Assembly (NCBI RefSeq): GCF_025273655.1
Contig: NZ_CP045921.1
Location: 1 to 32,000, forward strand
Length of the DNA stretch: 32,000 nt
Reading direction: 5' to 3'
Source: Candidatus Saccharimonadota bacterium
GTDB taxonomy: Bacteria > Patescibacteriota > Saccharimonadia > Saccharimonadales > Saccharimonadaceae
The translations under genes and the position numbers were made by a program. This document shows positions 2,765 through 30,760 of this stretch, piece by piece. The notes below the pieces were generated by a model. It was not told the origin of the DNA. It was given only the letters and a program-made list of their open reading frames with translations, and ran no database searches. Numbering within the stretch: the stretch's first letter is position 1; each line of letters begins with the position of its first letter.

Positions 2765-3808
2765 GTGGATATCACTGGTCTTCGCGTTCAGCACACTCGC
2801 AGCCATGACGATGCGAGCTTTGTGTTTGGTCAGCGCGTCAGCGTGATTACTGGGCCGAACGGATCTGGTAAAACGACACTACTCGAAGCACTTCACGTAG
2901 CGCTGCGGGGCACGTCGTTTCGCGGTAGTGACAGTGAGTTTCTGGCGCGCGATGAGGACTGGTGGCGTATTGATGTACGACTTGGCGACGAGCAGGCACG
3001 TGTAGTCAAGTTTGATAGTACGAAAACCTCTGGTCGTAAGCAATTTGAAATTGATCACAAGATTAACTATCGCCTGCCCGTCAGCAAGAAATATCCGGTG
3101 ATTTTGTTTGAACCGGACGATTTGCGTCTGCTAGGCGGTTCCCCTGCTCGCAGGCGGCAGTTTATTGATACGTTTATAACCCAAATCAATCCACTATACA
3201 CGAGTACCACACGCAAATATGAGCGTGCACTCAAGCAGCGTAATGCCCTATTGAAACAGCCTAGTGTGACGCGTGACTCCCTGTTTGTATGGGATATGGC
3301 AATAGCCGAATATGGTGCTGAGATGATTCGTGAACGCAGTCAGATTATCGAGCGTATCAATCAATCGCTGACGGACACATATCGAAGTATTGCGGGTACT
3401 GACGATACGGCGACGCTTCACTATTCGCATACAATTATCGATGGTATTCAGCAGAAGTTGGCGAACGAGCTGCATTACAATTTCGAGCGCGACAGTCTCC
3501 TGGGCTTTACGAGCACCGGTCCACACCGTCATGATGTGGTGGCGGAGTTCAACGGCGCCCCGGCTACAACTCGTGCGAGTCGTGGTGAAATTCGGAGTAT
3601 TATACTTGCGCTGAAGTTTATCGAAGTGGATGTAGCCGAATCGGCGACTGGCTTGTCACCCGTTGTGTTGCTCGACGATGTGTTTGCTGAGCTTGATGAA
3701 TCGAGGCAGCAACGCCTTGCAGAGAAATGTCGCGGCAACCAGATGTTCATCACCAGTACAGGTGCCTATACTGGCATCGACAGCGCGACGGTTATTGCGC
3801 TCGATTGA
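2765..3808 (+). CDS. recF: DNA replication/repair protein RecF (347 aa)
   Basis: GTG start shortly after the dnaN stop. Walker A GPNGSGKTTLLEAL. SMC-like signature/Walker B region SRGEIRSIILALKF...VVLLDDVFAELDESR. Confidence 0.93.
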   Translation: MDITGLRVQHTRSHDDASFVFGQRVSVITGPNGSGKTTLLEALHVALRGTSFRGSDSEFLARDEDWWRIDVRLGDEQARVVKFDSTKTSGRKQFEIDHKINYRLPVSKKYPVILFEPDDLRLLGGSPARRRQFIDTFITQINPLYTSTTRKYERALKQRNALLKQPSVTRDSLFVWDMAIAEYGAEMIRERSQIIERINQSLTDTYRSIAGTDDTATLHYSHTIIDGIQQKLANELHYNFERDSLLGFTSTGPHRHDVVAEFNGAPATTRASRGEIRSIILALKFIEVDVAESATGLSPVVLLDDVFAELDESRQQRLAEKCRGNQMFITSTGAYTGIDSATVIALD

Positions 3809-4415
3809 TATCGACGAGGATGTTGCGGCTTATCGACGGATAGAGCGGCGCGCTCAAGATAGGCATGGGTGGTTTTGAAAGTATGATCCAGCTTCCGTTC
3901 TTTTTCTCCATCAGTACATGTAGAATATCGGCGTTATCATTTGACTGGTCGCGCATAACGAGACTAGCACCATATACTTCTCCTAGGTGGTAGAGCTTGC
4001 CGTGCCGAATGTCGTAGTCGGTCGCGACTTTCGGGTAGGCTGCGATGAGTGTAGATTCGATGACCTGTTGTTCACCTAGGTAGAGTGTGTCGAGATACGA
4101 ACGTGAGTAGCCAAACTCAGCTGTGATGTTGCTTGTTGAGCCATCAATTACCTGCGCATGCCGATCTGCTGCTATATGGGCACCGACACTACGTACCTGG
4201 TAGGTGCCTTTTTTGAGTTTGACAGGTTGATTGTCGGCCGGATAGTAGTTTGGCTGGTTATTGCCGCTGAGCTCTATGTAGCCAAGCTGGCGGTCAAAAT
4301 GAAATGTCACTGTTTGAAATGAGAATATGTAGCTCCAAAGTAGCCATGTGCCAACAGCTGCGGCCGCAACAGTAGTAAGCAATAATATAATCTTTGTTGT
4401 GAGACTGCGGTGCAT
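3792..4415 (-). CDS. Membrane-anchored hypothetical protein (207 aa), last gene of the minus-strand array
   Basis: ATG 4415 overlaps the TAA of the upstream gene (TAATG). N-terminal helix IILLLTTVAAAAVGTWLLWSYIF, then a soluble domain with a GTYQV beta-sandwich-like stretch. The 3' end overlaps recF by 17 bp. No family recognised. Confidence 0.6.
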   Translation of the reverse strand: MHRSLTTKIILLLTTVAAAAVGTWLLWSYIFSFQTVTFHFDRQLGYIELSGNNQPNYYPADNQPVKLKKGTYQVRSVGAHIAADRHAQVIDGSTSNITAEFGYSRSYLDTLYLGEQQVIESTLIAAYPKVATDYDIRHGKLYHLGEVYGASLVMRDQSNDNADILHVLMEKKNGSWIILSKPPMPILSAPLYPSISRNILVDINRAQ

Positions 4416-5071
4416 TACTGAGCCTCCAGCGGGTTGTCAAAACCATCGTAGCGAATACGGTAATCTGTCGGATCATAGCCTTTACTGCGCAGCATACTTA
4501 ATGCTGCTTGACGGCTGTGGGGTGAAGTGCCCCAAATAACTAGTTCCACAGAGGCATCATCATGGTTCTGGTAGTCGACCGAATAGTACGGATCTTTGAT
4601 TGGTAGTACATTGACGATAGGATTTGTAGATTCAAACAGCGCATTATAGTCACGATTGCGTGCGACGGTGAGTGTCTCAAGATGTTGGTATTCTGCTTGA
4701 TGGCGAGCTTGCCAGGCTTTTGCGTCATCAGAGCGTGCGACGAGACCGATATAAATATATCCGAGTGCGTTATCTGACACTCGCAGATCACGGGTTTGTG
4801 AGTCGAATCCCTCTTTTTTGACAGTAACTTTGTACGTGCCAGGTACGATATACGCAGTGCCGCTTTGCGGCAGAGGCTGACCTGTCGATAGTGTTACGCT
4901 GGCGTCGGTCGGCACTACTTGTACTGGTACGGCAATTTTGCCCGCGCGCTGCTGAGCGAGCCAGATATTGTACCAGATGGTCATACCGACGACGAGTACT
5001 ACACATACTATTAGACCTGCAAGGAGCTGGCGGCGATATTTTCCGAGATAATACGAGAGTTCGTAATCCAT
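4415..5071 (-). CDS. Membrane-anchored PEGA-like domain protein (218 aa)
   Basis: ATG 5071 directly follows the TAA of the upstream gene (TAAATG). Single TM LLAGLIVCVVLVVGMTIWYNIWL. PEGA-like segment PTDASVTLSTG...VPGTYKVTVKKEGFDSQTRDLRV. Confidence 0.6.
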   Translation of the reverse strand: MDYELSYYLGKYRRQLLAGLIVCVVLVVGMTIWYNIWLAQQRAGKIAVPVQVVPTDASVTLSTGQPLPQSGTAYIVPGTYKVTVKKEGFDSQTRDLRVSDNALGYIYIGLVARSDDAKAWQARHQAEYQHLETLTVARNRDYNALFESTNPIVNVLPIKDPYYSVDYQNHDDASVELVIWGTSPHSRQAALSMLRSKGYDPTDYRIRYDGFDNPLEAQ

Positions 5072-6346
5072 TTACTTCTTCCTGTACCAATTATACCCGG
5101 GCTGTGTGGCACTCTGCTGAGTATCGGCCATCGGCGCACGTTCGTCGAGCGAAGCAGAGGCAATTGTGGCGCCAAACCCATCAGGCTTTTTGCCACGGTC
5201 ACCGACGTAGATGAAGGTGTGAGATGAGTTGATTGCCACGTCACCTTGCTGAAGTTTTCCTGGCGTGACATCCTCTGGTTTGATTTTAACCCAGTTTTTT
5301 TGCATCCAGGCTTCTTGGGAGCTTGTCGGCCCCCCTTTGCCGTTGTAGTTATAGCCTGGGTCATAGCCGCTATCGCGCACCAGGAGTGTCACGAAGCCGC
5401 CGCAATCGATACCTCGTGTTGTGGCAGTGGTGCCACCGACATAGTAGCCGCCAGCAAGAGCTTTTTTGACGGCGGCGGCATAGGCGTCGGTCGGCTTGAT
5501 TGTCATGCCTTTATAGGTCGGCCACGCGTAAGCTTTGAGGGTTTGATCGAGATTGCCTCCAGAGAAGCTACTGCTCGCGCAGCTACTATCGCTGGACTCT
5601 GATGTACTTTGACTCGTGTCACTCGCGGCTTGGCCATGCTCATCGACCTTCTCTTCTCCACTCGGATTATTCATCTCACTGCTAGCAGTACTACCGGCAA
5701 GTGCGGGGGCGTTCTTGTACTGATCATAGACCTTTTTGGCATTGCCGCCACGCACACTGCGCACTGCCGAGTCTGAGTCTGCCGAGCTTTCATAGCCATC
5801 GTGTACGACGACGGCCGCTTCTACTGGGTCGTTGGTGCGCTTGAGATTATTGAGCGTAGAAAGGTATGGGCCAGATAGTTCTACCCAGGTGAAACTGAGC
5901 TGGCCACCAAGGTCGGTGTTTTTGACGCCCATTTTGTCGATATGATCCTGGAGGGGTTTTTGACGCCCCGTAAAGGTCCACTGTACGAGCCCGAAGCCGA
6001 CGCCGTTTTGCAGCGTGTAGGTTTCGTTTTCGCCAATCAGCTTGCCGCCTTGCACTACATTTGGTTTCAGGCCGGATTCCTGCATCATATTCCCGACGAT
6101 ACCGCTTGCCTGGGCAAGATTAAGGCCTTTGCGCATATAGAAGTTGAGAATTTTTTCGACATTGTTGTTGCCAGCGAGTGATACAGCCCCTGCGCCCTGT
6201 GTTCTGCATTCATCATCGACAGCCCATGCCTCTTGGAGCATATACCTCTGCGGGTCGGTGATGGCCGCTACACGCACAGGAAATACCAGCTCATTCATGA
6301 GTAGGATGGCGGTGATCGCCAGGCAGACAGCACGACCAAAGCGCAT
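5072..6346 (-). CDS. Secreted two-domain peptidoglycan hydrolase: lysozyme-like (Phage_lysozyme2-type) + NlpC/P60- or CHAP-like cysteine peptidase (424 aa)
   Basis: Preferred ATG 6346, 1 nt after the TAA of the upstream gene, gives the signal-like N-terminus MRFGRAVCLAITAILLMNELVFPVRVAA. The track start 6433 would overlap the upstream gene by 86 nt. Motifs GIVGNMMQESGLKPN...GFGLVQWT. Ser-rich linker. C-terminal candidate catalytic Cys in GIDCGGFVTLL and His in SSHTFIYVG. The architecture parallels two-domain conjugation hydrolases of the CwlT type. Confidence 0.75.
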   Translation of the reverse strand: MRFGRAVCLAITAILLMNELVFPVRVAAITDPQRYMLQEAWAVDDECRTQGAGAVSLAGNNNVEKILNFYMRKGLNLAQASGIVGNMMQESGLKPNVVQGGKLIGENETYTLQNGVGFGLVQWTFTGRQKPLQDHIDKMGVKNTDLGGQLSFTWVELSGPYLSTLNNLKRTNDPVEAAVVVHDGYESSADSDSAVRSVRGGNAKKVYDQYKNAPALAGSTASSEMNNPSGEEKVDEHGQAASDTSQSTSESSDSSCASSSFSGGNLDQTLKAYAWPTYKGMTIKPTDAYAAAVKKALAGGYYVGGTTATTRGIDCGGFVTLLVRDSGYDPGYNYNGKGGPTSSQEAWMQKNWVKIKPEDVTPGKLQQGDVAINSSHTFIYVGDRGKKPDGFGATIASASLDERAPMADTQQSATQPGYNWYRKK

Positions 6347-6347
6347 G

Positions 6348-9284
6348 TTAGCCGCTACCTCCGCTGGCTTTATCGAGGTAAGGTTTTGGGTCGATAGGCT
6401 GACCGGTGCCGCTATTAGTATCGGAGCGTCCACCGGGCCATATTTCGAAGTGAAGATGCGGACCAGTGCTCTGCCCTTCGCTGCCGATACCAGCGATAGG
6501 CTGACCAGCCTTTACAGTATCCCCTACTTTTACGAGTATAGTATTGGCGCGCATGTGTCCATAGACAGTGTCGACGCGTTGTCCGTCGACCTCGTGCTGG
6601 ATCACAACCCAGTTACCGAAGCCGTTCGCGGGTCCGGCGGCAATCACCTTACCATCACGCGCAGCGTAGATTGGTGTACCGAGCGGCCCGGCTAGGTCGA
6701 TACCGTTGTGGCGGGTACCATCGCGCATACCGAAGCCGCTCGACACTTCCGTCTTGCTTTTCACGGTTGGGTAGGCCCAGCCATCGAGGCCAACTTTACC
6801 GGCTGCGCCACCATCGAATGCCTCTTGTGAGCCACCATCCATACCTGGCAGATTTTGGTCGAGTCCTTCGTTGATACCGAGGCTGAGCTTGAACTTGGCA
6901 TAGTGCCAATTCTTTTCGTAGTTAGCTTCGGCTACGCAGCCGCTGCCATTTGTCGGGTCTTTTTCAATATCTTCGGTAGCGCCAGGTTGCTGGTCGACAC
7001 ACTGTTCGAGATATTTCTTGTAGTTCCATAGTTGGCCGTTATCTGCCGGATCACCACTGTCAGAATCAACAATAATTTCGCCGTGCTCTGCCATCCACTT
7101 GGCGTTCTCGACTGGGTCGATCTCCATGGCTTCGTCTGGTAGGCCGAACACCATCACACATGTAGGATTAATGGCGACATTTGGTCCGAGCTGCGCATAG
7201 TCAGGGTCGTTGCAGTACGTGTAGCGATCTTTTTTGACAATATAGTCCGAGTCGGCGTGTGTGAGTGGCATGGCGACCGTACTCATGGCAGTGGTCGCGA
7301 CAGATGGCAGTGCGGCTAATGCGCCACCGAGATGTGTGCTGTCAATAGTGCGGAGGCTGGCGGCAATTGGCAGCGTAGTGCGCGCTAGTGAGCCGAGAAA
7401 AGAGAATTTATTGCTAGTATCAAACGGCTTTTTCACTGCGGCTAGCCGGTCGAGCTCATCGTATGCCTGCAACGTCTCGCGTTTACTGTTTTGGTATTTT
7501 GTCATTTTGTCTGGGCTGAGACTCATCATGCCTTGGGATCGTGCCATGCCGTTATACATCGCATCCGAGCCTACGGCGGTGGCGGTGCCGAAGTCGGTGT
7601 ATTTGAGGCCTTTGGTGACACTACCCGCAGCAATACTCGCAAGTTGTGCGGTCAGGAGCGGCATGGCCGCGCCAAACGCCACCGACAAGCCAAGCTGTGC
7701 AGCGGTACCGGCGCCAAATGTACCTACGCCCACAGCAATCGATACCGCTAGTACTCCGGCACGCACGAAGTTATTTTGCACGACACGGCAACGCTGTGAC
7801 ACCTCTGCCGTGGAACTGGCACCGGTCATGCGCGCCACGAGTTGCTGGGCGTTGCCAATCCCTGCTAACCTGTCACCACCAAGGAGAAGTGCTTTGCCCT
7901 GTTGGCTCATATTTTTCACGCCACCAAAGTCTTGATCTCGCGAGCCTTTCACGAGGGGCGAATCGAAGGCATTTTTACCACTATCGGGGCTGACTACTTC
8001 TGGAAGGTCGCTTCCGTAGGGTGTCTCACCTATTTTGGACTGATCGGCCACCTTCGTAGCAGGCGCGGCGTCCATAAGACGGTTTGACGGTGCTTCTACC
8101 GCCTCTGGGTATGATGTCTCGGCACGGAGCATGCTGGCAGGTTGAAATACGTTGTAGAACGCCAATCGTATCATCTCTTTGTATTGGAGGACGCGTGCGG
8201 CAACTCGCACGGCGGTGGCAGTGTTGAATACGGTACAGGCTGTATCGAGGGCATTGACCCGTCCAGCTGCCTTGCCGATAGTATCGCTGACAGCACCGAC
8301 AGATGGCGAGGCGTCGAGCTGTTTGCCGAAATCTTCGATAGCTTTGGCCTCTGCGGCACTATAGCGACGCCCATCTTCATCTTCGAACTCCCCGGTTTCG
8401 TTGCCATCTTTGTCTTTGACCGGTGTGAGCTTCGACGTCTCGATGTCGGTTTCTCCCGAGACGCGCTTGTCGGTCTCCTCCTGTACCTCTTTGACGGTGT
8501 TTTTCTTTTCGCCCATAGCGTAGGTAACTTTATTTTTAGAGAGGAAGTCCATGATTTCTTTGCCCTTATAGACACTGAAGCGCGGGCTATAGACCATGTA
8601 CATTTTGGCTCGGAACACGGGGTCGGACTTCATAAGTTTGGTGAAGGCTTCTGGTGAGTTGGCCTCGATGCGTGTGCCATCGGCTTTGACTACAGAGATA
8701 GTTTTGATACGGCCTCGCTTCTCAGTGAAACCTTTGTCTTCGTCAAACGTCATCATGAGTTTGTCGTCGCTCGAGGCATTGATGCGCCCAAGCGTTTTTT
8801 CCATCTTCTCCATATTGACGGTCTCATAGCGGCAGGCGATTTTGACAGCACCACAGGAGCCTTTGGTGGCTGTACTGAGTTTGTTGCGCCAGAGTTGTGA
8901 TGTGGTCTTGTCGACGCCTGAGAGCTGTGTGTTGAGGTCTCGGTCTAAGATGTCTGCCATCATGAGTAGTGGTGTCCCTGGCGCGAGACTGACGATAACA
9001 GCGCTACTTCCTCCGGCGATAAATAGTGCGATTGCGATGGCGGGTGATTTGCGACGCATGCCTTGAAAGAAGCCGGTGAAACGGCGTTTGCTACCGCCCG
9101 ATCGCTTGGGCGCACGCGTTTCTGGTGGTTTGGTCTGCTGGGCAAGTCGGGCGGCTTCAGTACGAGCGGCAGCTTCGCCATCTGCGTGCGCAAGGGTGGC
9201 GGCGCGTTTCTTTTCTTGGTCATACCAAAGACCCTGCTCTTCGAGCCGAATGTTTCCGGGAGATCGTTGTTCGTCCTGCGGCAT
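6348..9284 (-). CDS. Large membrane-anchored protein with C-terminal Peptidase_M23 (LytM-type) domain (978 aa); VirB1/PrgK-like role proposed
   Basis: GGTGGAG RBS upstream of ATG 9284. Charged N-terminus, TM AIAIALFIAGGSSAVIVSL, second hydrophobic block AGVLAVSIAVGVGTFGAGTAAQLGLSVAFGAAMPLL. C-terminal zinc motifs HNGIDLAG (HxxxD) and GPHLHFEIW (HxH). Confidence 0.8.
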   Translation of the reverse strand: MPQDEQRSPGNIRLEEQGLWYDQEKKRAATLAHADGEAAARTEAARLAQQTKPPETRAPKRSGGSKRRFTGFFQGMRRKSPAIAIALFIAGGSSAVIVSLAPGTPLLMMADILDRDLNTQLSGVDKTTSQLWRNKLSTATKGSCGAVKIACRYETVNMEKMEKTLGRINASSDDKLMMTFDEDKGFTEKRGRIKTISVVKADGTRIEANSPEAFTKLMKSDPVFRAKMYMVYSPRFSVYKGKEIMDFLSKNKVTYAMGEKKNTVKEVQEETDKRVSGETDIETSKLTPVKDKDGNETGEFEDEDGRRYSAAEAKAIEDFGKQLDASPSVGAVSDTIGKAAGRVNALDTACTVFNTATAVRVAARVLQYKEMIRLAFYNVFQPASMLRAETSYPEAVEAPSNRLMDAAPATKVADQSKIGETPYGSDLPEVVSPDSGKNAFDSPLVKGSRDQDFGGVKNMSQQGKALLLGGDRLAGIGNAQQLVARMTGASSTAEVSQRCRVVQNNFVRAGVLAVSIAVGVGTFGAGTAAQLGLSVAFGAAMPLLTAQLASIAAGSVTKGLKYTDFGTATAVGSDAMYNGMARSQGMMSLSPDKMTKYQNSKRETLQAYDELDRLAAVKKPFDTSNKFSFLGSLARTTLPIAASLRTIDSTHLGGALAALPSVATTAMSTVAMPLTHADSDYIVKKDRYTYCNDPDYAQLGPNVAINPTCVMVFGLPDEAMEIDPVENAKWMAEHGEIIVDSDSGDPADNGQLWNYKKYLEQCVDQQPGATEDIEKDPTNGSGCVAEANYEKNWHYAKFKLSLGINEGLDQNLPGMDGGSQEAFDGGAAGKVGLDGWAYPTVKSKTEVSSGFGMRDGTRHNGIDLAGPLGTPIYAARDGKVIAAGPANGFGNWVVIQHEVDGQRVDTVYGHMRANTILVKVGDTVKAGQPIAGIGSEGQSTGPHLHFEIWPGGRSDTNSGTGQPIDPKPYLDKASGGSG

Positions 9285-9334
9285 GCTAGAGTCTACTCCA
9301 CCCTATAAAAGAAAAGGGTAACTATTACAGACAG

Positions 9335-9363
9335 AGTATACACCTTTTTTGCATATTATGCAA
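9335..9363 (-). promoter_or_regulatory. Sigma70-like promoter for the 978-aa hydrolase operon, with the -35 inside a palindrome
   Basis: Minus strand: TTGCAT (9363-9358), 17 nt spacer, TATACT (9340-9335), about 50 nt upstream of ATG 9284. The -35 lies inside the 15-nt palindrome TTGCATA-T-TATGCAA (9349-9363). Confidence 0.45.
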
Positions 9364-9388
9364 TCTTATATTAGTGATATCGGGCTTA

Positions 9389-10716: not shown

Positions 10717-10717
10717 A

Positions 10718-12184: not shown

Positions 12185-12192
12185 GGTACCTC

Positions 12193-22934: not shown

Positions 22935-22982
22935 GACAATCACCTTCCTTTCTATTGGGGACGAAGGGGTCATGTACTCGTG

Positions 22983-23011
22983 ATTCTATCACAATTTTAT
23001 ATATATGTCAA
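22983..23011 (-). promoter_or_regulatory. Strong sigma70-like promoter for the lipoprotein gene
   Basis: Minus strand: consensus TTGACA (23011-23006), 17 nt spacer, TAGAAT (22988-22983), with TGA immediately upstream of the -10 (extended -10 TGn). About 45 nt upstream of ATG 22934. Confidence 0.55.
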
Positions 23012-23042
23012 TATTACGCTGTGTATTGTACAATGCTTATGG

Positions 23043-25586
23043 TTATGCGAATGGATTTGAAATCTGCTTGATAAGCTCTTGATTATTTGATTTTGCGAGA
23101 GTGGTCGGATTACCACGAAGTGCTTTTGCTGTCTCTATCATGTTGCGTGTACCTGCTCCATCTGCCGCGTTCATGGCATATTCAAGTATATGCTTGTCTG
23201 CTGTCGCCATGCCCTCTTGCGACATGGCGTTGTTGGCAAGGTTCTCGCGCACTCGCTCTGTGAATGACGCATTACTACCTTGTCCAGATGCATACTCTTG
23301 GATATCGCGCGCTGTCATTACTGCGCCGGCATGTTCGTTGACTGCTGTTGTGACTGTACGAAGTATAACCTGCGGGGCACCTTTATCTCTGGTCAGTTCA
23401 TCGACATAGTGTGCATAGCCATGGTGTGCTTGGCCACTCTCGTCATCAAAACTTCCGACCTGATGCCTAGCTACGTATTCTTTGAACGCGGCAGCGACCA
23501 TTTCCGGTGTTTGGTTGGCACGGTCATCAAGTACGCGCTCGAGCTCGCTATAGTCGGCATGCTGGAGTGAAAGGCCATGGGCGGACACCAGAGAGTCTTG
23601 CTCATTTGCGAGTTCGAGTTCTGCTTGCCCCCTCATTGCGGCCGCAAGATTATCGTTACCCCCCGCCATCTTTTTGGCATACTTTGGATCTTTGAATTGT
23701 TGATTGGTATAGTTTCGCTGTGCATAATTGAGTGCGTTTTGGGATTCAGTATCTTTCTGCTCGTTCATCATTTGCCGATGGTAGCGTCCACCCAATGCGG
23801 AGCCCGCCACACTGCGCGCTCGTCGCTTGACTCCTCCGTCCCCCTCTTTCGGTGTCACGATTTGCCCGAATTTACCACTGTAGGCACGTGCGGTAGCTTC
23901 TTTTTGTTTGCGGTTTGTGAATCCTGTCGCTCGATCTGAGAGTTTTTTGCCCACACCTTTCGCTCGAGACGACAATCCACCGGCAAATTTGGCAAGTTTT
24001 CCGCTTGATTTTAGTAAAAAGTACGTCATGAATAACGGTGCCGTCTGGACGCCAAGCGCGAATACCTGCATAAGTGCCCCGGGACTTGCAGAAAGAAGTA
24101 CGTTTGAAGCAAGTTTTGAGGCTCCAAAAAGAAGTGATATAACGGGGAACATAACAAGTAGTTTTACAAACAACCCCATCCAGCGATCGAACCATTTTTT
24201 GGTATTGGGCAGCAGGAACATTACGAAAATTATTGGCGATAAAACGATGAGAATCGTGATAAACGCTTGTCTAGCGATGAGAATAATCACAACTGTCGCA
24301 ACAGCAACTATGGCACTAATGATAACAGGAGCGAGAAAACCTAGGAGTGCAAACATACTACCTCCTATGACAGATCCACCCACCGCTATAACTGCAGTGG
24401 ATGCTGCACCAATAACAAGCGTACCAGCTAGTACACGAGAGGTTACTGTTTCAAATGTCGAGTTATTGCCTTGCGGCTGTTGCATACCCTCGAACAATTC
24501 TTTCATGGAGTAGCCAGCGATATTGGATATATCAACAGCTAGCATACAGATCCAGAATGATGTATTGACGAGAACTGCAGCTACAATCATGCGAGGGAGT
24601 AGTTTCTTGATACCGTAGTTACTGATCCCCTGTCCTGTTACCTGCGACCAAATGATAAAAAGAAATACGATCACAAACATTACGTTTGCGAGCAGCAAAA
24701 ATCGTGACCAAGATTTCTGCAGTTGAGCACGATTTGTAGGATTAGAGAGACTGTCGTAGCGAAGTAGTGGTTGTAGAAAATTATAGTATAGGCCATCGGC
24801 TATTTTGGCGGTGAATGCCATGGCTGGGCAGATCAGCCAGCCGATTCCTCCGACAACACATACGTCCTTTTTCCCATTTTTGGGTTTTGATTGAAATACA
24901 CCCTGGAGTGCCTCAGCTGGATAGCCGGTTTTTTGCGACATGCATTTATATAGGTCAGCCTCGGAGACGGTTTTAGAAATTCGGCCGGCACCACCGAGCT
25001 CGTTATAGCAATCGTCAAATGCCTTGTTGAGCTTCTTTTTGCAGCCGGCTAGATCCGTTGGTGAAACTTGCTGACAGACGGTTTCAGCGCCGTTATTAAG
25101 CCCTTCGCGCCTGTTGTTTAGGGCCGTACGCTGCTTACCTTTACCATCTTTCGCGTTACCGTTATTGATGGTGATGTTGAGGCGTGCACCATCTCCGCTA
25201 CCAAACCGATAACATCCAACACCATTGTTGCGAGTTGGTATGAGTACGGCTTCGCCTGCTTCGTTGACGTTTCCTTTGAAGCCAATATAATCATCGCACC
25301 CAGTATAGTCATTATCTGTATACCAATGGTCGAAGCCGGATAGGTTTTTAACAGCTCCGTTCGGCGTGCCACTCGAGGTAAAAGACATGCCGTTGTAGTT
25401 GAGGTGGTCGCCGTCCCAGTTTGCGTTTGTAGGGCAACCATCAAAGTTGTAGCCAGTTGAGAGAGTATTACTTGTGGTCTCAGAGCCACAGTTTAGCTTC
25501 GAGGCATGAACTTGCTGTGAAGTTGTAACGCACAGTAGTATACTTGCCGCTACTGCTGTCGCCAAGAGGTAGAATATCTTATTCAC
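23043..25586 (-). CDS. VirB6/TrbL-like polytopic T4SS membrane protein, paralog A (847 aa)
   Basis: GTG 25586. Signal peptide MNKIFYLLATAVAASILLCVTTSQQVHA. About 250-aa Cys-containing ectodomain (DGCPTNANWDGDHLNYNG...SGTPNGAVKNL). GIGWLICPA motif, then at least six hydrophobic helices (FLLLANVMFVIVFLFIIW, MIVAAVLVNTSFWICMLAV, AFITILIVLSPIIFVMFLL). About 300-aa hydrophilic tail. The family call is by topology and resemblance only. Confidence 0.65.
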   Translation of the reverse strand: MNKIFYLLATAVAASILLCVTTSQQVHASKLNCGSETTSNTLSTGYNFDGCPTNANWDGDHLNYNGMSFTSSGTPNGAVKNLSGFDHWYTDNDYTGCDDYIGFKGNVNEAGEAVLIPTRNNGVGCYRFGSGDGARLNITINNGNAKDGKGKQRTALNNRREGLNNGAETVCQQVSPTDLAGCKKKLNKAFDDCYNELGGAGRISKTVSEADLYKCMSQKTGYPAEALQGVFQSKPKNGKKDVCVVGGIGWLICPAMAFTAKIADGLYYNFLQPLLRYDSLSNPTNRAQLQKSWSRFLLLANVMFVIVFLFIIWSQVTGQGISNYGIKKLLPRMIVAAVLVNTSFWICMLAVDISNIAGYSMKELFEGMQQPQGNNSTFETVTSRVLAGTLVIGAASTAVIAVGGSVIGGSMFALLGFLAPVIISAIVAVATVVIILIARQAFITILIVLSPIIFVMFLLPNTKKWFDRWMGLFVKLLVMFPVISLLFGASKLASNVLLSASPGALMQVFALGVQTAPLFMTYFLLKSSGKLAKFAGGLSSRAKGVGKKLSDRATGFTNRKQKEATARAYSGKFGQIVTPKEGDGGVKRRARSVAGSALGGRYHRQMMNEQKDTESQNALNYAQRNYTNQQFKDPKYAKKMAGGNDNLAAAMRGQAELELANEQDSLVSAHGLSLQHADYSELERVLDDRANQTPEMVAAAFKEYVARHQVGSFDDESGQAHHGYAHYVDELTRDKGAPQVILRTVTTAVNEHAGAVMTARDIQEYASGQGSNASFTERVRENLANNAMSQEGMATADKHILEYAMNAADGAGTRNMIETAKALRGNPTTLAKSNNQELIKQISNPFA

Positions 25587-25598
25587 GAGCTGATCCCG

Positions 25599-28124
25599 TT
25601 AAAAATTGCCCTTTGCAAAGTTGTCGATAGAGCCTTTGGATTTACCAACACCAGTGTAGGCTTGGCTTCCTTGAAGGTTTTTTGCTGCACCCGTAACTTG
25701 TTGCTGAATAGCCTGATTGTTTTTGGCCAGATCTTTAATATGTGCTATCTCGTCTGCCCCAGCACCTGCAAGACCATTGGCCGAAAGCCTACCGCCAGCA
25801 AGCTGTTGTGAGACCATGTCATTAAAGCTTGAAACGTTTTGCTCAGGATTGATCATTTGACCGTTAGAGATAGCTGCCTTATTGGCTGCTCCGAGGTATG
25901 CGCTTCCAGAAAGAGCCCCGGCGGTTGCACGAGTAATGACGTTTGCATGGCCTTTGGCCTCTTCTTGAGTTTTATTGATATATTTGCCATACCCAGGGGT
26001 GGTTGTGCCGTCTTGGTTGGTCTTGTCTGCTACATCGCCTATTTTAATCAATTGCGCCAAGGCTGCTGCTTGTTCCTCTGCACTAGTATTTTTATCATCG
26101 AGTATCTTCGCAAGATCTTCGGCAGTCTTTTCTGCCATGACATATGACAAACCTTTTAGTACATCGTCCTCTGCTTTGTGTGCCCCAGCTACGGCTTGCC
26201 CTTGAAGTACTGCATCAAGTCGAGCATTTCCTGTATTCGCACCGCTCATTAGCCTGTCGCGATTAAACTCACCCTGGCTGTATTTGAGCGCTTGTTCTGC
26301 TCTTGCGTCTTTTTCTTTACTATTGAGGTCACGCACAAACGAGCCTGATCCAACCCTTCGTCCAATATGCTTTGCCTTGCCCCATGCACCAGTCGGTGGA
26401 TTCACCTTGTCTGCATAGAGGCCGGCTGCGTTGCGCATTTGGCGGCGTTTGAGCATTTGTTGGCCCTTGTTGTTTGCGCGATCGAGTAGGCCTTTGGTCT
26501 TGTCGTTTGAGATAGCACCGATTTTACCAAGCATACCTCCGGTGCTTTTGAGTATTGCCGGGATGATAAAGAGTGGAATTGCCATGAGTCCTAGCGAGAA
26601 TATCTGCGTGAGTACACCGGTATCACCAAGTAGCACTACACCGGCCGCAAACTGGGCACCACCAAACACTAGGGCTACAAAGGGGTATAGCAGCAGCATG
26701 GAAATGAAGGTATCTTTCCAGCGATCAAACCACTTAGAAGTGTTCGGCAAAAGATAGGCTACAAATGCAAGCGGAGAGATGACTACCAGTATAGTGATTA
26801 TCGCTTGTCTGGCTACGAGGATCAAGATGACTGTGAGTGCAGCAAAAAGTGCCGAGAGCATGACTGGCAGTAGAAATGATAGTGTGCCAAGTAATGCACC
26901 AGACGCCGCGATACCTGCCACCACGACAGTACCGCCAAGCACTCCGGCCATAACGGTCTCAAACGTACTTGGCGTTTGGGCTCCTGCACCAGTTTGTCCT
27001 GTGGAGACTATGAGTTCCTTGAGGTTTGCGCCAATAATATTAGAGAGGTCTACCGCAACAATACAGACCCAGAAAGATATATTGACAAGAATCGCGGCGA
27101 TAATGATACGCGGCAGTAGTCGCTTGATGCTGTATGTGTTGAGTCCGGCTCCCGTGATTTGTGAATAGATGACAACTAGAAACGCACCGATAAATGCCAC
27201 GTTTGCGAGGTTACGCATGTTAGACCACTGGGTTTTTAGCGAATCTTGACTCTGTTGATTTGCCAATGAATCATAGCGCAAAAAACCCTCTAAGAAGTTG
27301 AATACCCCATCGGTTAGTTTGGCAAGAAAACTCGAAGCAGGACATATAATCCAACCAATACCGTCTTGGATTTTACAGGCGACCTGGGCATCGTCGGGGG
27401 GGTTGAACAACCCGGAGAGCTTATCTTTTGGGTAACCAGTTTTTCCTGCTATACATGTGAGCATTTTGTCTTCTGACTCTTTGTTGGCTGGTGTCTTCGC
27501 GCACTCGTCAAATGCGTTAGATATCTTATCTCGACACGCCTGGGCATTATCTGGATCGACGCTTTTACATATTTCGTCGACGTTTTCTTCTAGATTTTCT
27601 TTGGTGATATCTTCATTATTAGCCCCAGTGCCACTAGGAGAACCTTGATTATTCTTACCTTTGCCATTATTGAGGGTGATTTCCTTTTTTGCCGAGTTAT
27701 AGAGTGCACAACCGCCTCCGTAACCATTTCCAAAATGCGTAGGTATAACAGTAGCCTTCGTGGCTGTTTCTGGTGATCCATTGAAGGCTATATAGTCCGA
27801 GCAACCGGCAGTGACATCATTGTCATAGTAGTGTTCCCATCCAAGACCTTTTACTGCTCCGTTTGGTGTTCCACTCTTATTAAATGTTTCACCACCATAG
27901 TTGAGGTGATCTCCATCCCAGTTTGCATTACCGGGACAACCATCCCATTTATAGCCATTGTAACCGGTAACATAGTTTCCGCTAGCTTCACCACAGTCAA
28001 GGGCGTGCGCTGGACCCGCTGTCAGTGTCGAAATGAATACTGTAGTAAACAGACCCAAAAAGGCACTCACGATGAGATGAGTGAATGTTTTCCTGCTAGT
28101 TTTAATATCTACCCTTTTCATCAC
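25599..28124 (-). CDS. VirB6/TrbL-like polytopic T4SS membrane protein, paralog B (841 aa)
   Basis: ATG 28124, or the adjacent ATG 28121 with better spacing from GAGGGTG. Hydrophobic N-terminus. Ectodomain DGCPGNANWDGDHLNYGG...SGTPNGAVKGL, GIGWIICPA, and a TM core collinear with paralog A (RLLPRIIIAAILVNISFWVCIVAVDLSNIIG versus KLLPRMIVAAVLVNTSFWICMLAVDISNIAG). Divergent C-terminal tail. Confidence 0.65.
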   Translation of the reverse strand: MMKRVDIKTSRKTFTHLIVSAFLGLFTTVFISTLTAGPAHALDCGEASGNYVTGYNGYKWDGCPGNANWDGDHLNYGGETFNKSGTPNGAVKGLGWEHYYDNDVTAGCSDYIAFNGSPETATKATVIPTHFGNGYGGGCALYNSAKKEITLNNGKGKNNQGSPSGTGANNEDITKENLEENVDEICKSVDPDNAQACRDKISNAFDECAKTPANKESEDKMLTCIAGKTGYPKDKLSGLFNPPDDAQVACKIQDGIGWIICPASSFLAKLTDGVFNFLEGFLRYDSLANQQSQDSLKTQWSNMRNLANVAFIGAFLVVIYSQITGAGLNTYSIKRLLPRIIIAAILVNISFWVCIVAVDLSNIIGANLKELIVSTGQTGAGAQTPSTFETVMAGVLGGTVVVAGIAASGALLGTLSFLLPVMLSALFAALTVILILVARQAIITILVVISPLAFVAYLLPNTSKWFDRWKDTFISMLLLYPFVALVFGGAQFAAGVVLLGDTGVLTQIFSLGLMAIPLFIIPAILKSTGGMLGKIGAISNDKTKGLLDRANNKGQQMLKRRQMRNAAGLYADKVNPPTGAWGKAKHIGRRVGSGSFVRDLNSKEKDARAEQALKYSQGEFNRDRLMSGANTGNARLDAVLQGQAVAGAHKAEDDVLKGLSYVMAEKTAEDLAKILDDKNTSAEEQAAALAQLIKIGDVADKTNQDGTTTPGYGKYINKTQEEAKGHANVITRATAGALSGSAYLGAANKAAISNGQMINPEQNVSSFNDMVSQQLAGGRLSANGLAGAGADEIAHIKDLAKNNQAIQQQVTGAAKNLQGSQAYTGVGKSKGSIDNFAKGNF

Positions 28125-28160
28125 CCTCTAGTGTTTGTTACAAGTCATGTACAGTCGCTA

Positions 28161-28188
28161 CTGATAATAGTAGAATATGCTTATGCAA
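28161..28188 (-). promoter_or_regulatory. Candidate promoter for the VirB6-like operon
   Basis: Minus strand: TTGCAT (28188-28183), 16 nt spacer, TATCAG (28166-28161). It shares the extended -35 string TTGCATAA with the promoter at 9335-9363. Confidence 0.3.
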
Positions 28189-28225
28189 AAAGCAATATCT
28201 TTCTCATATATGTATCTCTGGTGGC

Positions 28226-28252
28226 TTGCCAAGTGCTCGTAAATGGTATATT
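28226..28252 (+). promoter_or_regulatory. Candidate promoter for the pilin array
   Basis: TTGCCA (28226-28231), 15 nt spacer, TATATT (28247-28252), preceded by TGG (extended -10 TGn). It lies 16 nt upstream of ATG 28269. The spacer is short, so the call is weak. Confidence 0.3.
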
Positions 28253-28268
28253 TTATTGATAAGTAGTT

Positions 28269-28733
28269 ATGAAAACGAAAATAAAACAAATAGTACACGT
28301 AGTAGGATTTGGCATCATCAGTATGAGTATGATGATTGCTGCATTTGGTGTGTTTGGGGATACTACTTACGCCTCGAGCTCATGTCCTCAGGGTTCATCG
28401 GGAACTGTCAACGGTGTCACCTGTAGTGGAGCCAAAGAGTGTGGCGGCGTGAAGACCGCCATCATTAGCTGTACCGAGTCCGGCGGCAATGATGTGCAAA
28501 ACTCTGGTATTTTAGGTATATTGAAACTCGTTGTCCGCGTACTTGCCATTGGCGTGGGAGTCGTTGCGGTTGCGGGCATAGGCTGGGGCGCGATTCAGTA
28601 TGCAACCGCCCAAGATAATGCAGGCCAAATTAACGAAGCTATCTCTATAATTCGTAACGTTATCATTGGCTTGGTTGCATTTGCTTTTATGACCGTATTC
28701 TTAAACTTTATTGTCCCTGGAGGAGTTCTATAA
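28269..28733 (+). CDS. VirB2/TrbC-like T4SS pilin paralog 1 (154 aa)
   Basis: Signal-like N-terminus, 4-Cys variable ectodomain (SSSCPQGSSGTVNGVTCSGAKECGG...ISCTESGG), then helix-loop-helix core VAVAGIGWGAIQYATAQDNAGQINEAISIIRNVIIGLVAFAFM. Confidence 0.7.
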   Translation: MKTKIKQIVHVVGFGIISMSMMIAAFGVFGDTTYASSSCPQGSSGTVNGVTCSGAKECGGVKTAIISCTESGGNDVQNSGILGILKLVVRVLAIGVGVVAVAGIGWGAIQYATAQDNAGQINEAISIIRNVIIGLVAFAFMTVFLNFIVPGGVL

Positions 28734-28734
28734 T

Positions 28735-29157
28735 ATGAAAAAGCCTACTTTACTGAGATCTCTACTGTTGATACCTGTGCTTTTGGGGGCATTTTTCGTC
28801 GCTGCTCCATCGGCCAACGCTGTCGGTACTTGTAATTTCAATTCGCGCTTCCTTACCTTTCCTACATGGTGGCGAGGAATTCCTACGGACACAGGTACCT
28901 GCTCGCTCAAAATGGAAGACATCCCCCCCGAACGACTCGTATCGATTATCGCTGCCAATATAGCAGAAGTGATTATTCAGTTAGTCGGATACGCAAGTGC
29001 AATATTTATAATTGTAGGTGGATTCAAATATATTACGAGCAGCGGCTCGCCAGATGGTATGACAAGTGCTCGTAAGACGATACAGAATGCAGTGATAGGA
29101 CTCCTTGTGTCTATCCTATCCGTTGGAATAGTAAATATAGTGTTTAGCAGGTTATAA
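28735..29157 (+). CDS. VirB2/TrbC-like T4SS pilin paralog 2 (140 aa)
   Basis: Preferred ATG 28735 with GGAGGAG 12 nt upstream (track start 28711 is TTG inside paralog 1). Signal peptide MKKPTLLRSLLLIPVLLGAFFVAAPSANA, 2-Cys ectodomain, core FIIVGGFKYITSSGSPDGMTSARKTIQNAVIGLLVSILS. Confidence 0.7.
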   Translation: MKKPTLLRSLLLIPVLLGAFFVAAPSANAVGTCNFNSRFLTFPTWWRGIPTDTGTCSLKMEDIPPERLVSIIAANIAEVIIQLVGYASAIFIIVGGFKYITSSGSPDGMTSARKTIQNAVIGLLVSILSVGIVNIVFSRL

Positions 29158-29159
29158 AT

Positions 29160-29459
29160 ATGTCGATGTATAGTATTTTTGCAGGTCTCATCAGTGGGGC
29201 GGATGTCGGACTTAGTGGTATGCAGGTTGCCGATTCTACCACCGCGTGGAATAGCCTTCTTAATACGGTTTATTCTATCGCTGGTATTGTAGCAGTACTA
29301 GTGATCATAGTAGCTGGCATCTACTATGCAACTTCAAATGGTGATGCTGGCAATATCCAGCGTGCCAAAAATGCTATCCTCTACTCCGTAATTGGTATAA
29401 TTGTGATTATTATGGCATTTACAATTACGCAGTTTGTTATCGGACGAGCAGCCGGGTGA
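29160..29459 (+). CDS. VirB2/TrbC-like T4SS pilin paralog 3, short form with no obvious signal peptide or ectodomain (99 aa)
   Basis: Core VLVIIVAGIYYATSNGDAGNIQRAKNAILYSVIGIIVIIMA. ATG lies 2 nt after the paralog 2 stop. Weak SD. Confidence 0.65.
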   Translation: MSMYSIFAGLISGADVGLSGMQVADSTTAWNSLLNTVYSIAGIVAVLVIIVAGIYYATSNGDAGNIQRAKNAILYSVIGIIVIIMAFTITQFVIGRAAG

Positions 29460-29487
29460 ACGGATTAAATAAACGAAGGAACGAATA

Positions 29488-29856
29488 ATGAAGCAGATTT
29501 TTCTTACAATTGCAGTAGTCGTCGGTCTTGCAGGAGGTACGCTCCTCTTCGCAAGCCATGCGGACGCGTTAAATGCGTGGGGTGCATGTAGTAACGGTGG
29601 TAGTGGTGCGGTTTGTAGTGCAAGTGGTTCGGACGACTTCAGCAAAACTATGCAAAACATCATCAACATGATGCTGTATGTACTTGGTGTTATTGCCGTA
29701 ATTGCTATCATCATTGGCGGTATTCGCTATGCAACCGCCAACGGCGATGCGAGTCATATTAAGCAGGCTAAGGATACTATCCTCTATGCTGTTATTGGGC
29801 TCATCGTGGCAATCATGGCCGGGGCGATAGTAAACTTTGTAGTTGGACGTTTTTAG
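29488..29856 (+). CDS. VirB2/TrbC-like T4SS pilin paralog 4 (122 aa)
   Basis: GAAGGAA SD. Signal peptide MKQIFLTIAVVVGLAGGTLLFASHADA, 2-Cys ectodomain (WGACSNGGSGAVCSASG), core IAIIIGGIRYATANGDASHIKQAKDTILYAVIGLIVAIMA. Confidence 0.75.
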   Translation: MKQIFLTIAVVVGLAGGTLLFASHADALNAWGACSNGGSGAVCSASGSDDFSKTMQNIINMMLYVLGVIAVIAIIIGGIRYATANGDASHIKQAKDTILYAVIGLIVAIMAGAIVNFVVGRF

Positions 29857-29864
29857 CGTATAAT
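29837..29864 (+). promoter_or_regulatory. Candidate internal promoter in front of pilin paralog 5
   Basis: TTGTAG (29837-29842), 16 nt spacer, consensus TATAAT (29859-29864). The second in-frame ATG (29872, MKTKYTH...) lies 7 nt after the -10, which is compatible with a leaderless transcript. Confidence 0.3.
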
Positions 29865-30249
29865 GCGACTCATGAAGACAAAATACACACATAAACTAAA
29901 AAGTGCGACAGGTGTACTTACTGCTGCATTTGCAGTTGCAACGGCCTACACTAGCAATGCCTTTGCGAGTGCAGCGAGTGAGATTGGGAGTGGCGCGAAT
30001 TCTACCGGCCAGACAAGCGGGGTTACATTTCAGCAGGGGGTTACGACAGTAACAAATATCCTACTGTTCCTTATTGGTCTTGTGGCCGTGATTATGATCA
30101 TCATCGGTGGTATTCGCTACACTACATCTAACGGAGACGCAAGCCAGACAAAAGCAGCCAAGGACACTATTTTGTATGCTATTGTCGGACTTGTTGTCGC
30201 AATCATGGCGTATGCAATTGTGAGCTGGGTTGTTAAAACCTTTGTGTAG
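29863..30249 (+). CDS. VirB2/TrbC-like T4SS pilin paralog 5 (128 aa, or 125 aa from ATG 29872)
   Basis: Signal-like N-terminus ...GVLTAAFAVATAYTSNAFA, Cys-free Ser/Gly/Thr-rich ectodomain, core IMIIIGGIRYTTSNGDASQTKAAKDTILYAIVGLVVAIMA. Confidence 0.75.
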   Translation: MRLMKTKYTHKLKSATGVLTAAFAVATAYTSNAFASAASEIGSGANSTGQTSGVTFQQGVTTVTNILLFLIGLVAVIMIIIGGIRYTTSNGDASQTKAAKDTILYAIVGLVVAIMAYAIVSWVVKTFV

Positions 30250-30261
30250 TGAGTACAGAAG

Positions 30262-30290
30262 TTTACAACTGGTGTCTCATATGCTATAAA
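30262..30290 (+). promoter_or_regulatory. Candidate promoter for pilin paralog 6
   Basis: TTTACA (30262-30267), 17 nt spacer, TATAAA (30285-30290), with TGC immediately upstream (extended -10). It lies in the 70-bp gap before ATG 30320. Confidence 0.4.
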
Positions 30291-30319
30291 CATACAAAGA
30301 AAGAAAGGAACAAAATCAA

Positions 30320-30760
30320 ATGAAACAACAAGTAAAATCTCTCGCGACGCAGGCGCAGTACTATATGGCGGTGGTGTTTGCGACACTGAGTTTCGCACTT
30401 GCCGGTTTGTTCATGTTGGCTCCAGCTGCGCATGCAGCAGATTGTAACACCCAAGGCGGTGATAATCTTAGTATCTCGGCAGGTGTTAACTGTGCACAAG
30501 GTAAGGATCAACCGACAGAACTGTTTGGCGATCAAGGTATCTTCACCACTGTCACCAACGTACTATTGTTCTTGATCGGTGCGGTCAGTGTGATTATGCT
30601 GATCATTGGTGGTATTCGCTATACTATTTCAAACGGTGATCAGGGTGCAGTTACTTCTGCTAAGAACACGATTCTCTATGCGATTATCGGACTTGTCGTC
30701 GCAATCCTATCGTTTGCAGCCGTCTCATTCGTGACTGGTCAGTTCTCGTCAGAGCAATAG
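30320..30760 (+). CDS. VirB2/TrbC-like T4SS pilin paralog 6 (146 aa)
   Basis: AAAGGAA SD. Signal peptide ending LAPAAHA, 2-Cys ectodomain (ADCNTQGGDNLSISAGVNCAQG), core IMLIIGGIRYTISNGDQGAVTSAKNTILYAIIGLVVAILS. Confidence 0.75.
   Translation: MKQQVKSLATQAQYYMAVVFATLSFALAGLFMLAPAAHAADCNTQGGDNLSISAGVNCAQGKDQPTELFGDQGIFTTVTNVLLFLIGAVSVIMLIIGGIRYTISNGDQGAVTSAKNTILYAIIGLVVAILSFAAVSFVTGQFSSEQ

Follow-up and report, generated by a model that had tools for sequence, protein, structure and literature searches.

The closest described relatives of the locus treated here are the type IV secretion systems (T4SSs) of the Patescibacteria. In Southlakia epibionticum, transposon sequencing (Tn-seq) identified SEML1_0006-0019 as essential for epibiotic growth; the pilin subunits are essential, as are the peptidase and lysozyme genes downstream of virB4, no recognisable coupling protein or relaxase is present, and it was proposed that the T4SS "may instead export proteins" (Wang et al. 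2023, PMC10633639). A survey of the Patescibacteria (Quinonero-Coronel et al. 2025, PMC12102498) placed their VirB4 in a clade related to the MPF-FATA class and described a TrsD gene adjoining virB4, PrgI, VirB6, VirB2 arrays of 2-11 genes and proximity to dnaA/dnaN, with relaxases nearly absent and homologues of the type IV coupling protein (T4CP) mostly encoded far from virB4. A 2025 review called the system the first T4SS essential to its bearer and speculated that machine and pilus form a conduit to the host. Here we describe the corresponding locus of Candidatus Mycosynbacter amalyticus, a saccharibacterium available in culture that parasitises and lyses Gordonia amarae, in a stretch of 32,000 nucleotides (contig NZ_CP045921.1, positions 1 to 32,000, forward strand; hereafter the window). 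The T4SS and its non-conjugative interpretation are already published, and the species-specific details are modest increments: a duplicated hydrolase module, a probable LAS-type domain, a conserved order of pilin classes and the width fit of a tube seen by cryo-electron tomography (cryo-ET).

Judged by its genes and their arrangement, the locus is almost certainly a core, chromosomal, non-conjugative T4SS of the Patescibacteria type. It has three parts, an MPF-FATA-related cytoplasmic-membrane engine, a divergent array of six pilin genes and two tandem modules of wall hydrolases, and the best overall explanation, to which we assign a probability of about 0.6, is that it builds a pilus tube serving as an essential link to the host. 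The organism is identified by two proteins of the window, of 1059 and 207 residues, which are 100% identical to GII36_00055 and GII36_00020 of Candidatus M. amalyticus; an earlier reading of the letters alone (the sequence-only reading) had guessed a lineage resembling the candidate phyla radiation (CPR) or Saccharibacteria, which is correct.

With the T4SS of S. epibionticum ML1 the locus shares its position just after dnaA-dnaN-recF, VirB4 together with TrsD, PrgI and VirB6, a six-gene array of VirB2-like pilins, peptidase and lysozyme genes downstream of virB4, and a cluster without relaxase or coupling protein. It differs from the S. epibionticum and other Patescibacteria systems in its extent of about 27 kb, in its pair of VirB6 paralogues, in a second hydrolase module where the others have a single one, and in its additional OFeT_1-like permease, 147-aa membrane protein and lipoprotein candidate; essentiality is known from S. 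epibionticum. The monoderm MPF-FATA systems (TrsD/TrsE of pGO1, Prg of pCF10, CD1110 of Clostridioides CTn2, and Mbov_0395/0397 of the Mycoplasma integrative conjugative element (ICE)) form a related class, with which the locus has in common a VirB4 that passes the CD1110 cut-off, PrgI and large multi-domain wall hydrolases beside virB4. A separate TrsD-like gene is found in pGO1 as well, and pilins 3 and 4 pass the cut-off for the pilin-like conjugal transfer protein of the Mycoplasma element. In contrast to MPF-FATA systems, the window holds no relaxase, coupling ATPase, oriT-processing genes or integrase, the locus is chromosomal and vertically conserved, and a multi-gene pilin array takes the place of surface adhesins.

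Gene order and position of the locus

Fifteen genes are tightly packed on the minus strand from 28124 down to 3792, with gaps of -86 to +183 nt and several junctions that overlap by 1-4 nt, while the six pilin genes lie on the plus strand at 28269-30760, divergent from this run. The run reaches recF itself: its last gene, at 3792, encodes the 207-aa protein and overlaps recF by 17 bp in the gap table, exactly the overlap claimed earlier. The engine, the pilin array and the borders of the locus are as follows.

18372-20216, minus strand: VirB4 ATPase, 614 aa (P-loop_TraG, AAA_10, CD1110 family, PDB 4ag5)
20216-21304, minus strand: TrsD-like protein, 362 aa (NCBIfam TrsD/TraD; Pro/Gln-rich N-terminal region)
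21333-22205, minus strand: PrgI/VirB3-like membrane protein, 290 aa (Pfam PrgI; two N-terminal hydrophobic segments)
23043-25586, minus strand: extended VirB6-like protein a, 847 aa (sub-threshold TrbL; polytopic)
25599-28124, minus strand: extended VirB6-like protein b, 841 aa (sub-threshold TrbL; hydrophobic segments)
28125-28268, no strand: divergent intergenic region between virB6b and the pilin array, 144 bp (gap table)
28269-28733, plus strand: pilin 1, class 1, with a Cys-rich N-terminal extension (T4SS_pilin E 3.7e-5)
28711-29157, plus strand: pilin 2, class 2 (T4SS_pilin 28.0 bits)
29160-29459, plus strand: pilin 3, class 3, 99 aa, no clear leader (T4SS_pilin E 3.6e-13, TrbC E 7e-5)
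29488-29856, plus strand: pilin 4, class 4 (T4SS_pilin E 1.3e-12, TrbC E 4e-8)
29863-30249, plus strand: pilin 5, class 4 (T4SS_pilin E 1.7e-11)
30320-30760, plus strand: pilin 6, class 4 (T4SS_pilin E 1.4e-9)
1-3808, plus strand: left boundary, outside the machine, with dnaA, dnaN and recF (Pfam)
30829-32000, no strand: right boundary, outside the machine, with hsp20 and then a ComF-family gene
30829-31317, minus strand: hsp20 (Pfam HSP20 E 4e-19)
31412 to beyond 32000, plus strand: ComF-family gene (TIGR00201 comF E 3e-14)

Gene order was compared, by tblastn and at the level of open reading frames (ORFs), with the 80 best Saccharibacteria contigs, one genome per GTDB species and with flanks of 10 kb, and ten of these relatives were examined in detail. 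VirB4 is 70-86% identical in the 80 relatives, and the order in their loci runs from hsp20 through the pilins (on the opposite strand), virB6, prgI, trsD, virB4, a large membrane peptidase, a lysozyme-type protein and one or two small bitopic proteins to recF, dnaN and dnaA. The last three genes lie within 10 kb in 52 of the 58 loci that have at least 9 kb downstream of virB4; among the loci with at least 9 kb upstream (n=56), virB6 is present in 54, pilins in 48 and hsp20 beside the pilin array in 35. The distance from virB4 to dnaN is 15.6 kb here against a median of 6.6 kb in the relatives (3.6-9.8 kb, a range bounded by the 10-kb flank).

Pfam scans of the window's main ORFs (a 26-gene set) found no relaxase, no coupling ATPase of the VirD4/TcpA type and no integrase. 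The window contains no tRNA and no Rfam match, and no att-like direct repeats bracket the locus, the sole spanning pair being a 19-nt A-rich match. From this gene content and synteny the locus is read as core, origin-proximal and non-mobile. The sequence-only reading had listed the same absences, of relaxase, coupling ATPase, integrase, tRNA and flanking repeats, and had taken the apparatus to be T4SS-derived, fixed in the chromosome and used for something other than self-transfer; the conserved synteny, the lack of mobility genes and the published interpretation all agree with it. It had also named what would speak for an ordinary mobile element, namely mobility genes just beyond the window, att-like repeats and patchy presence among relatives. 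Instead the flanks are rnpA-dnaA and hsp20-comF, and the occurrence of VirB4 is not patchy.

On the left side dnaA (1-1371), dnaN (1657-2757) and recF (2765-3808) are all encoded on the plus strand according to the ORF map and Pfam scans, and in a public contig rnpA lies upstream of dnaA, forming the flank beyond the window. Two DnaA-box-like sites are present in the dnaA-dnaN gap (1372-1656), at 1394 and 1590; across the whole window DnaA boxes are not enriched. The 24-kb minus-strand operon (3792-28124) is transcribed toward dnaA, in the same relative orientation as in related loci, and if oriC is the dnaA-dnaN gap, the operon would run head-on to the rightward replication fork.

The engine and the pilin array

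VirB4 matches Pfam P-loop_TraG (E 2e-28) and AAA_10, the NCBIfam CD1110-family VirB4 with 375 bits against a cut-off of 325 (profile positions 177-734 of 752), and the solved VirB4 C-terminal domain in PDB 4ag5 (E 5e-46). Its Walker A motif, AKSGAGKS at residue 260, is the sole genuine one in the locus, in line with the single Walker-A ATPase noticed earlier. The TrsD-like protein, whose stop codon overlaps the virB4 ATG by 1 nt, matches NCBIfam TrsD/TraD at E 5e-6 and 26 bits, far under the family cut-off of 200, and has no Pfam or PDB match; in the VirB4 profiles it covers positions 2-101 (CD1110) and 232-280 (Mbov_0397). Profile coverage thus presents the two proteins as complementary pieces of a full-length VirB4, with the TrsD-like piece N-terminal. 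Because trsD and virB4 are separate ORFs in all 80 relatives, with trsD directly upstream, and because each of the two covers a part of the profile that the other lacks, we regard the two-gene arrangement as fixed and reject a frameshifted virB4 or pseudogene; the longest in-frame open stretch upstream of virB4 in the relatives is 138 nt. The earlier description of 18372-21304 as split VirB4-like ATPase genes therefore holds for the split, taken in an evolutionary sense. As side observations, a poly-glutamine run (QQQQQQQ) closes VirB4 (18372-18420), and the Pro/Gln-rich N-terminal region of the TrsD-like protein is encoded by DNA with a 77-nt direct repeat, its copies 96% identical and 129 nt apart (21027-21232).

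The PrgI-like protein matches Pfam PrgI at E 2.7e-14 and 53.9 bits, against a cut-off of 27, and prgI adjoins trsD in 75 of the 80 relative loci. The two extended VirB6-like proteins are paralogues, 37% identical and each with about eight hydrophobic segments; protein a consists of a Cys-rich N-terminal exodomain, a polytopic core and a long hydrophilic C-terminus. Their matches to Pfam TrbL are below the cut-off of 25.9 bits (protein a, E 0.004, 17.3 bits, residues 326-516; protein b, E 0.009, 16.3 bits), fall on the polytopic region and recur in three of nine orthologues from relatives. The best-conserved DNA between the paralogues (25396-25455 and 27898-27957, 78% identity) encodes part of the Cys-rich N-terminal exodomain with the motif NANWDGDHLNY, which has no family match; the exodomain is possibly surface-exposed.

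Pfam T4SS_pilin is matched by all six pilins and exceeded at its cut-off by five, pilin 1 remaining just under it with 24.2 bits against 26.6. TrbC passes its own cut-off for pilin 4 alone (33.7 against 27.9), and the NCBIfam model for the Mbov_0395 pilin-like conjugal transfer protein (cut-off 40) is passed by pilin 3 with 52.4 bits and by pilin 4 with 41.7. All six have two hydrophobic helices with a short polar loop between them; an N-terminal hydrophobic leader is present in four, while pilins 3 and 5 show two helices without a leader in a crude hydropathy scan. Where BLASTP detects similarity, pairs of pilins are 25-63% identical over local alignments, and pilin 5 is 48-49% identical to pilins 4 and 6. 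The true start of pilin 2 is probably the ATG at 28735, as judged from the sequence. With these matches the earlier assignments of a PrgI/VirB3-like gene (21333-22205), two VirB6/TrbL-like proteins (23043-28124) and six VirB2/TrbC-like pilins (28269-30760) are upheld, the second of them at sub-threshold scores.

Counted from the virB6 side, the pilins follow the same order across genera: a protein like pilin 1, one like pilin 2, often one like pilin 3, and then at least one like pilins 4, 5 and 6 (loci L007, L013, L019, L024 and L053 are among the relatives that were ordered). Class-1 pilins of relatives occur in the first array position only, next to virB6, and class-2 pilins are usually second; only class 4 varies much, from one to about seven copies, and the most frequent patterns are 124444 (in six loci) and 123444 (in five). 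Such a fixed order across genera suggests that the classes are old, specialised paralogues with distinct structural roles and not the product of recent variation. The host-range or antigenic versatility suggested for pilin arrays (PMC12102498) fits less well with this conserved class order. Since pilins 3 and 4 pass the Mbov_0395 cut-off, a pilin-like gene may, on sequence grounds, already have been present in the monoderm MPF-FATA ancestor system, a point that touches on the published proposal of a diderm origin of the pilins by co-option.

Wall-hydrolase modules and neighbouring genes

Below virB4 on the minus strand, the operon encodes the wall hydrolases and a number of other membrane proteins, to which we add the lipoprotein candidate located within the engine genes.

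15189-18368, minus strand: module A gene 1, 1059 aa, membrane protein ending in a LAS-like zinc peptidase domain (motif and fold)
12193-15192, minus strand: module A gene 2, 999 aa, GH3 (NagZ-like) and Phage_lysozyme2 (Pfam)
10718-12208, minus strand: 496-aa bitopic protein with one N-terminal hydrophobic segment and a large C-terminal domain (weak FlgD_ig, E 0.01)
6348-9284, minus strand: module B gene 1, 978 aa, membrane protein ending in an M23 endopeptidase (Peptidase_M23 E 1.9e-30)
5072-6433, minus strand: module B gene 2, 453 aa, Phage_lysozyme2 and NlpC/P60-like (Phage_lysozyme2 E 5.7e-30)
4415-5071, minus strand: 218-aa bitopic protein with a PEGA/CarboxypepD_reg-like sandwich (one hydrophobic segment, weak Pfam matches)
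3792-4415, minus strand: 207-aa bitopic protein, last gene of the operon (transmembrane helix, transthyretin-like beta-sandwich, small alpha+beta domain)
9829-10728, minus strand: 299-aa polytopic permease-like protein, OFeT_1/FTR1-like, of the iron-permease type (OFeT_1 E 2.7e-7, 31 bits against 26.9)
9389-9832, minus strand: 147-aa small membrane protein (three hydrophobic segments)
22389-22973, minus strand: lipoprotein candidate, 194 aa, with an LTGC lipobox, between virB6a and prgI (sequence)

Module A comprises the 1059-aa (LAS-like), 999-aa (GH3 and lysozyme) and 496-aa proteins, and module B the 978-aa (M23), 453-aa (lysozyme and NlpC/P60), 218-aa and 207-aa proteins. The 999-aa protein matches GH3 (E 9e-28), Phage_lysozyme2 (E 8e-31) and the NCBIfam beta-N-acetylhexosaminidase (E 9e-17), and it has an N-terminal hydrophobic segment and a weakly GDSL-like N-terminal part (GDSL_2 E 0.005). 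The 978-aa protein also matches an NCBIfam MepM/ShyA-like model, and a member of its family directly follows virB4 in nine of ten relatives examined. In the 453-aa protein a weak NlpC_P60 match (E 0.007) falls on the C-terminal piece, and the lysozyme domain matches phi29 gp13 (3csr, E 0.007); the public gene call for this ORF starts at 6346, giving 424 aa and abutting the gene for the 978-aa protein. Each hydrolase carries an N-terminal hydrophobic segment, and for the set as a whole five bond specificities are predicted, one of the activities being a lysozyme of the phage-tail type akin to phi29 gp13. This phage protein unites a tail-tip lysozyme with an M23 peptidase, the same pair of activities as here, whereas in the present locus they are assigned to separate, membrane-anchored proteins of a secretion system and not to a virion.

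The fourth hydrolase rests on the C-terminal domain of the 1059-aa protein, for which no Pfam, NCBIfam or PDB sequence match was found; PDB profile matches to GH19 chitinases were dismissed as the effect of a single alignment member, and a word-indexed protein search returned near-identical copies only. A HMMER search of a 1.84-billion-protein library with the last 210 residues gave 161 relatives, in which the domain is mostly C-terminal in proteins of about 1000 aa; in 56 shorter ones it co-occurs with Phage_lysozyme2, PG_binding_1, LGFP, SH3_3 and GH19. All 21 aligned homologues carry the motifs HPKGxAVD and HxH (H-x6-D...H-x-H) unchanged, across 57 the motifs are nearly invariant, and the LAS zinc-ligand pattern, H-x(3-6)-D and H-x-H, is present. 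An AlphaFold2 (AF2) model of the domain has a pLDDT of 92. Foldseek found no PDB match at E <= 0.001, the best being Shh-N at E 0.06, but LAS zinc peptidases fill 12 of the top 18 PDB ranks (hedgehog-N, MepA, VldE, the T5 and RB49 L-Ala-D-Glu peptidases and VanXYc); against the BFVD viral models the best match, to an unnamed phage protein, has an E of 1.5e-4, with M15A/M15C peptidases and endolysins lower down. Motif and modelled fold together point to a probable divergent wall peptidase of the LAS type that no Pfam model matches, and we propose the domain with HPKGxAVD and HxH as a candidate new wall-peptidase family. The domain (15189-15740, the C-terminal ~180 aa) also has conserved cysteines.

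Because the 1059-aa domain is read as a LAS-type wall peptidase, the earlier count of four hydrolases between 5072 and 18368 stands; the span itself was drawn too uniformly, as it includes three genes, at 9389-12208, that do not encode hydrolases. The stretch 5072-18368 resembles two diverged copies of one arrangement, a membrane peptidase, a lysozyme2 protein and then bitopic beta-sandwich proteins. Identity between the paralogues of the two modules is 21-24% (1059 against 978 aa, in two segments) and 35%, values from which the pairs are judged old. Each of the ten relatives examined has a single hydrolase module, made up of a membrane peptidase, a lysozyme protein and small bitopic proteins. 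The G+C content is 53-55% in the module copy at 5-9 kb and 44-47% in the stretch at 9-12 kb.

Genes resembling that for the 496-aa protein occur between the hydrolases and recF in five relatives, and the 218-aa protein has tblastn matches in 21, at the same position near the end of the operon. The AF2 model of the 207-aa protein has a pLDDT of 79, and its Foldseek matches concern the beta-sandwich part only. The OFeT_1-like permease and the 147-aa membrane protein are encoded between modules A and B; tblastn found neither in the 80 relative loci, the 147-aa protein has no family match, and the permease-like protein probably stands outside the machine. The lipoprotein candidate likewise gave no tblastn match in the 80 relatives, and in the ten examined virB6 abuts prgI; promoter-like and terminator-like sites flank its gene here. 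On the plus strand of the 144-bp gap between virB6b and the pilins, promoter-like hexamers were found at 28148-28176 and 28226-28254, as consensus matches only, and this gap probably holds divergent promoters. In the scans for promoters and terminators, matches were at chance level in 3-20 kb, so that they do not fix the limits of the operon. Beyond the array, the ComF-family gene begins 95 bp past hsp20 and encodes a double zinc ribbon and a phosphoribosyltransferase motif; a 139-aa ORF at 31515-31934 was rejected as spurious since it overlaps the true ComF-family frame in a different frame.

A proposed pilus tube to the host and the alternatives

The T4CP is dispensable for assembly of the F-pilus and the T-pilus. 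VirB4, VirB3, VirB6, VirB2 and wall hydrolases without a T4CP would accordingly correspond to the pilus-assembly subset of a T4SS, and this is how we infer the gene set to function. In our model, Sec-inserted pilins would be extracted from the membrane by VirB4 and polymerised on a VirB3/VirB6 platform into a short hollow tube, while the hydrolases would open the parasite's own wall and that of Gordonia, allowing the tube to reach the host. The tube would then act as a contact or transfer channel that the parasite needs for growth, and not in DNA conjugation.

Structures of a suitable size have been seen by cryo-ET in M. amalyticus: a tube lying between parasite and host, with a width of 8.6+/-0.7 nm and a length of 61 nm, and a lance 8.98+/-0.58 nm wide and about 70 nm long that arises from the inner membrane and has a barbed tip. 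Pili of the VirB2 family are 7.4-8.7 nm wide with lumens of 1.6-2.6 nm. The thin filaments of M. amalyticus are Pam pili and hence not a product of the T4SS. Equating the T4SS tube with this 8.6-9 nm lance or conduit is a tentative step, for which we would put the odds somewhat short of even. With similar caution, we speculate that the four ancient, positionally fixed pilin classes might build the lance as a wall-piercing tube for feeding or injection, driven from the inner membrane into Gordonia, and that pilins of classes 1-3, the duplicated hydrolase modules or both might form its barbed tip.

Several points weigh against a pilus tube made by this locus. The link between lance or tube and the genes is an approximate match in width; the widths in tomograms are distances between the centres of the wall densities, and 8.98 nm lies at the top of the known range of VirB2-family pili or beyond it. 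To our knowledge, monoderm T4SSs do not make pili. The VirB6 assignment depends on sub-threshold matches, and no VirB8-like or VirB5-like part was found in the locus: in the search for VirB8, the 207-aa protein gave no significant fold match (against the TcpC/VirB8-like 3ub1, Foldseek E 0.7 and probability 0.12), and the 218-, 496- and 194-aa proteins gave weak or no family matches. A VirD4-like gene may moreover lie elsewhere in the genome, as in S. epibionticum (PMC12102498), and essentiality was shown in that other genus only.

Among other explanations, the one that survives best, although we consider it unlikely, is an exporter of protein effectors or toxins that delivers proteins, possibly the hydrolases of the locus itself or other factors, onto or into Gordonia, the pilins then being an adhesive or a channel stub; it may be likened to the T4CP-less Ptl system of Bordetella or to bacteria-killing T4SSs. 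That M. amalyticus lyses its host would suit such a function, yet the core locus is shared with non-lytic epibionts. The hydrolase set is unusually large, and all its members have the N-terminal hydrophobic segment, but wall hydrolases beside virB4 are normal VirB1-type assembly factors of monoderm T4SSs (PMC12102498). T4SSs that export Sec-dependent substrates without a T4CP do exist (PMC12102498) and protein export is the suggestion of Wang et al. (PMC10633639), while no effector, chaperone or recognition signal is known. Export is in any case compatible with the tube model and does not exclude it.

A nucleic-acid importer, through which a cell unable to make nucleotides would obtain them from the DNA or RNA of its host, appears quite improbable. 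Its models, the archaeal Ced system and ComB of Helicobacter, are like this locus T4SS-derived, chromosomal and non-conjugative and have no relaxase. ComB, like Ced, also does without a T4CP. Ced imports by means of VirB2-like pilins, a VirB6-like protein and a VirB4-like ATPase (PMC9905601), the combination found here, and VirB4 of M. amalyticus has a partial match to CedB (E 2.7e-12), which is however limited to the shared ATPase core. The ComF-family gene 650 bp past the pilin array in this window would agree with import, as would a 2026 preprint that proposes host-RNA feeding in another patescibacterium and mentions possible T4SS pili. In S. epibionticum, by contrast, competence depends on type IV pili and ComEC, and a comEC deletion is viable whereas the T4SS is essential, so that the essential function there is independent of ComEC.

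An ordinary or decaying ICE with relaxase, T4CP and integrase outside the window is scarcely credible, for although VirB4, TrsD, PrgI and the pilin-like proteins have homologues among the components of Firmicute and Mycoplasma elements, it is excluded by the missing mobility genes and by the synteny, between hsp20 and recF-dnaN-dnaA and with high VirB4 identity, in 80 species-level relatives, and is rejected also on the flanks (rnpA-dnaA and hsp20-comF), the lack of att repeats, tRNA and integrase in the window, the intactness of all genes of the locus and the essentiality of the homologous locus in S. epibionticum (PMC10633639).

A Patescibacteria-type T4SS that builds a pilus tube as host link is therefore the reading that we prefer, and its meaning extends beyond this parasite. 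A large part of bacterial diversity belongs to the Patescibacteria, which live on other cells, and the T4SS is one of a small number of machines with demonstrated essentiality for this way of life. If the lance is indeed its product, a monoderm T4SS would for the first time be seen to make a pilus. M. amalyticus can be cultivated and has been imaged by cryo-ET, and tying the tube to the pilin genes in this organism would settle both the question of a monoderm pilus and the nature of the connection between parasite and host.

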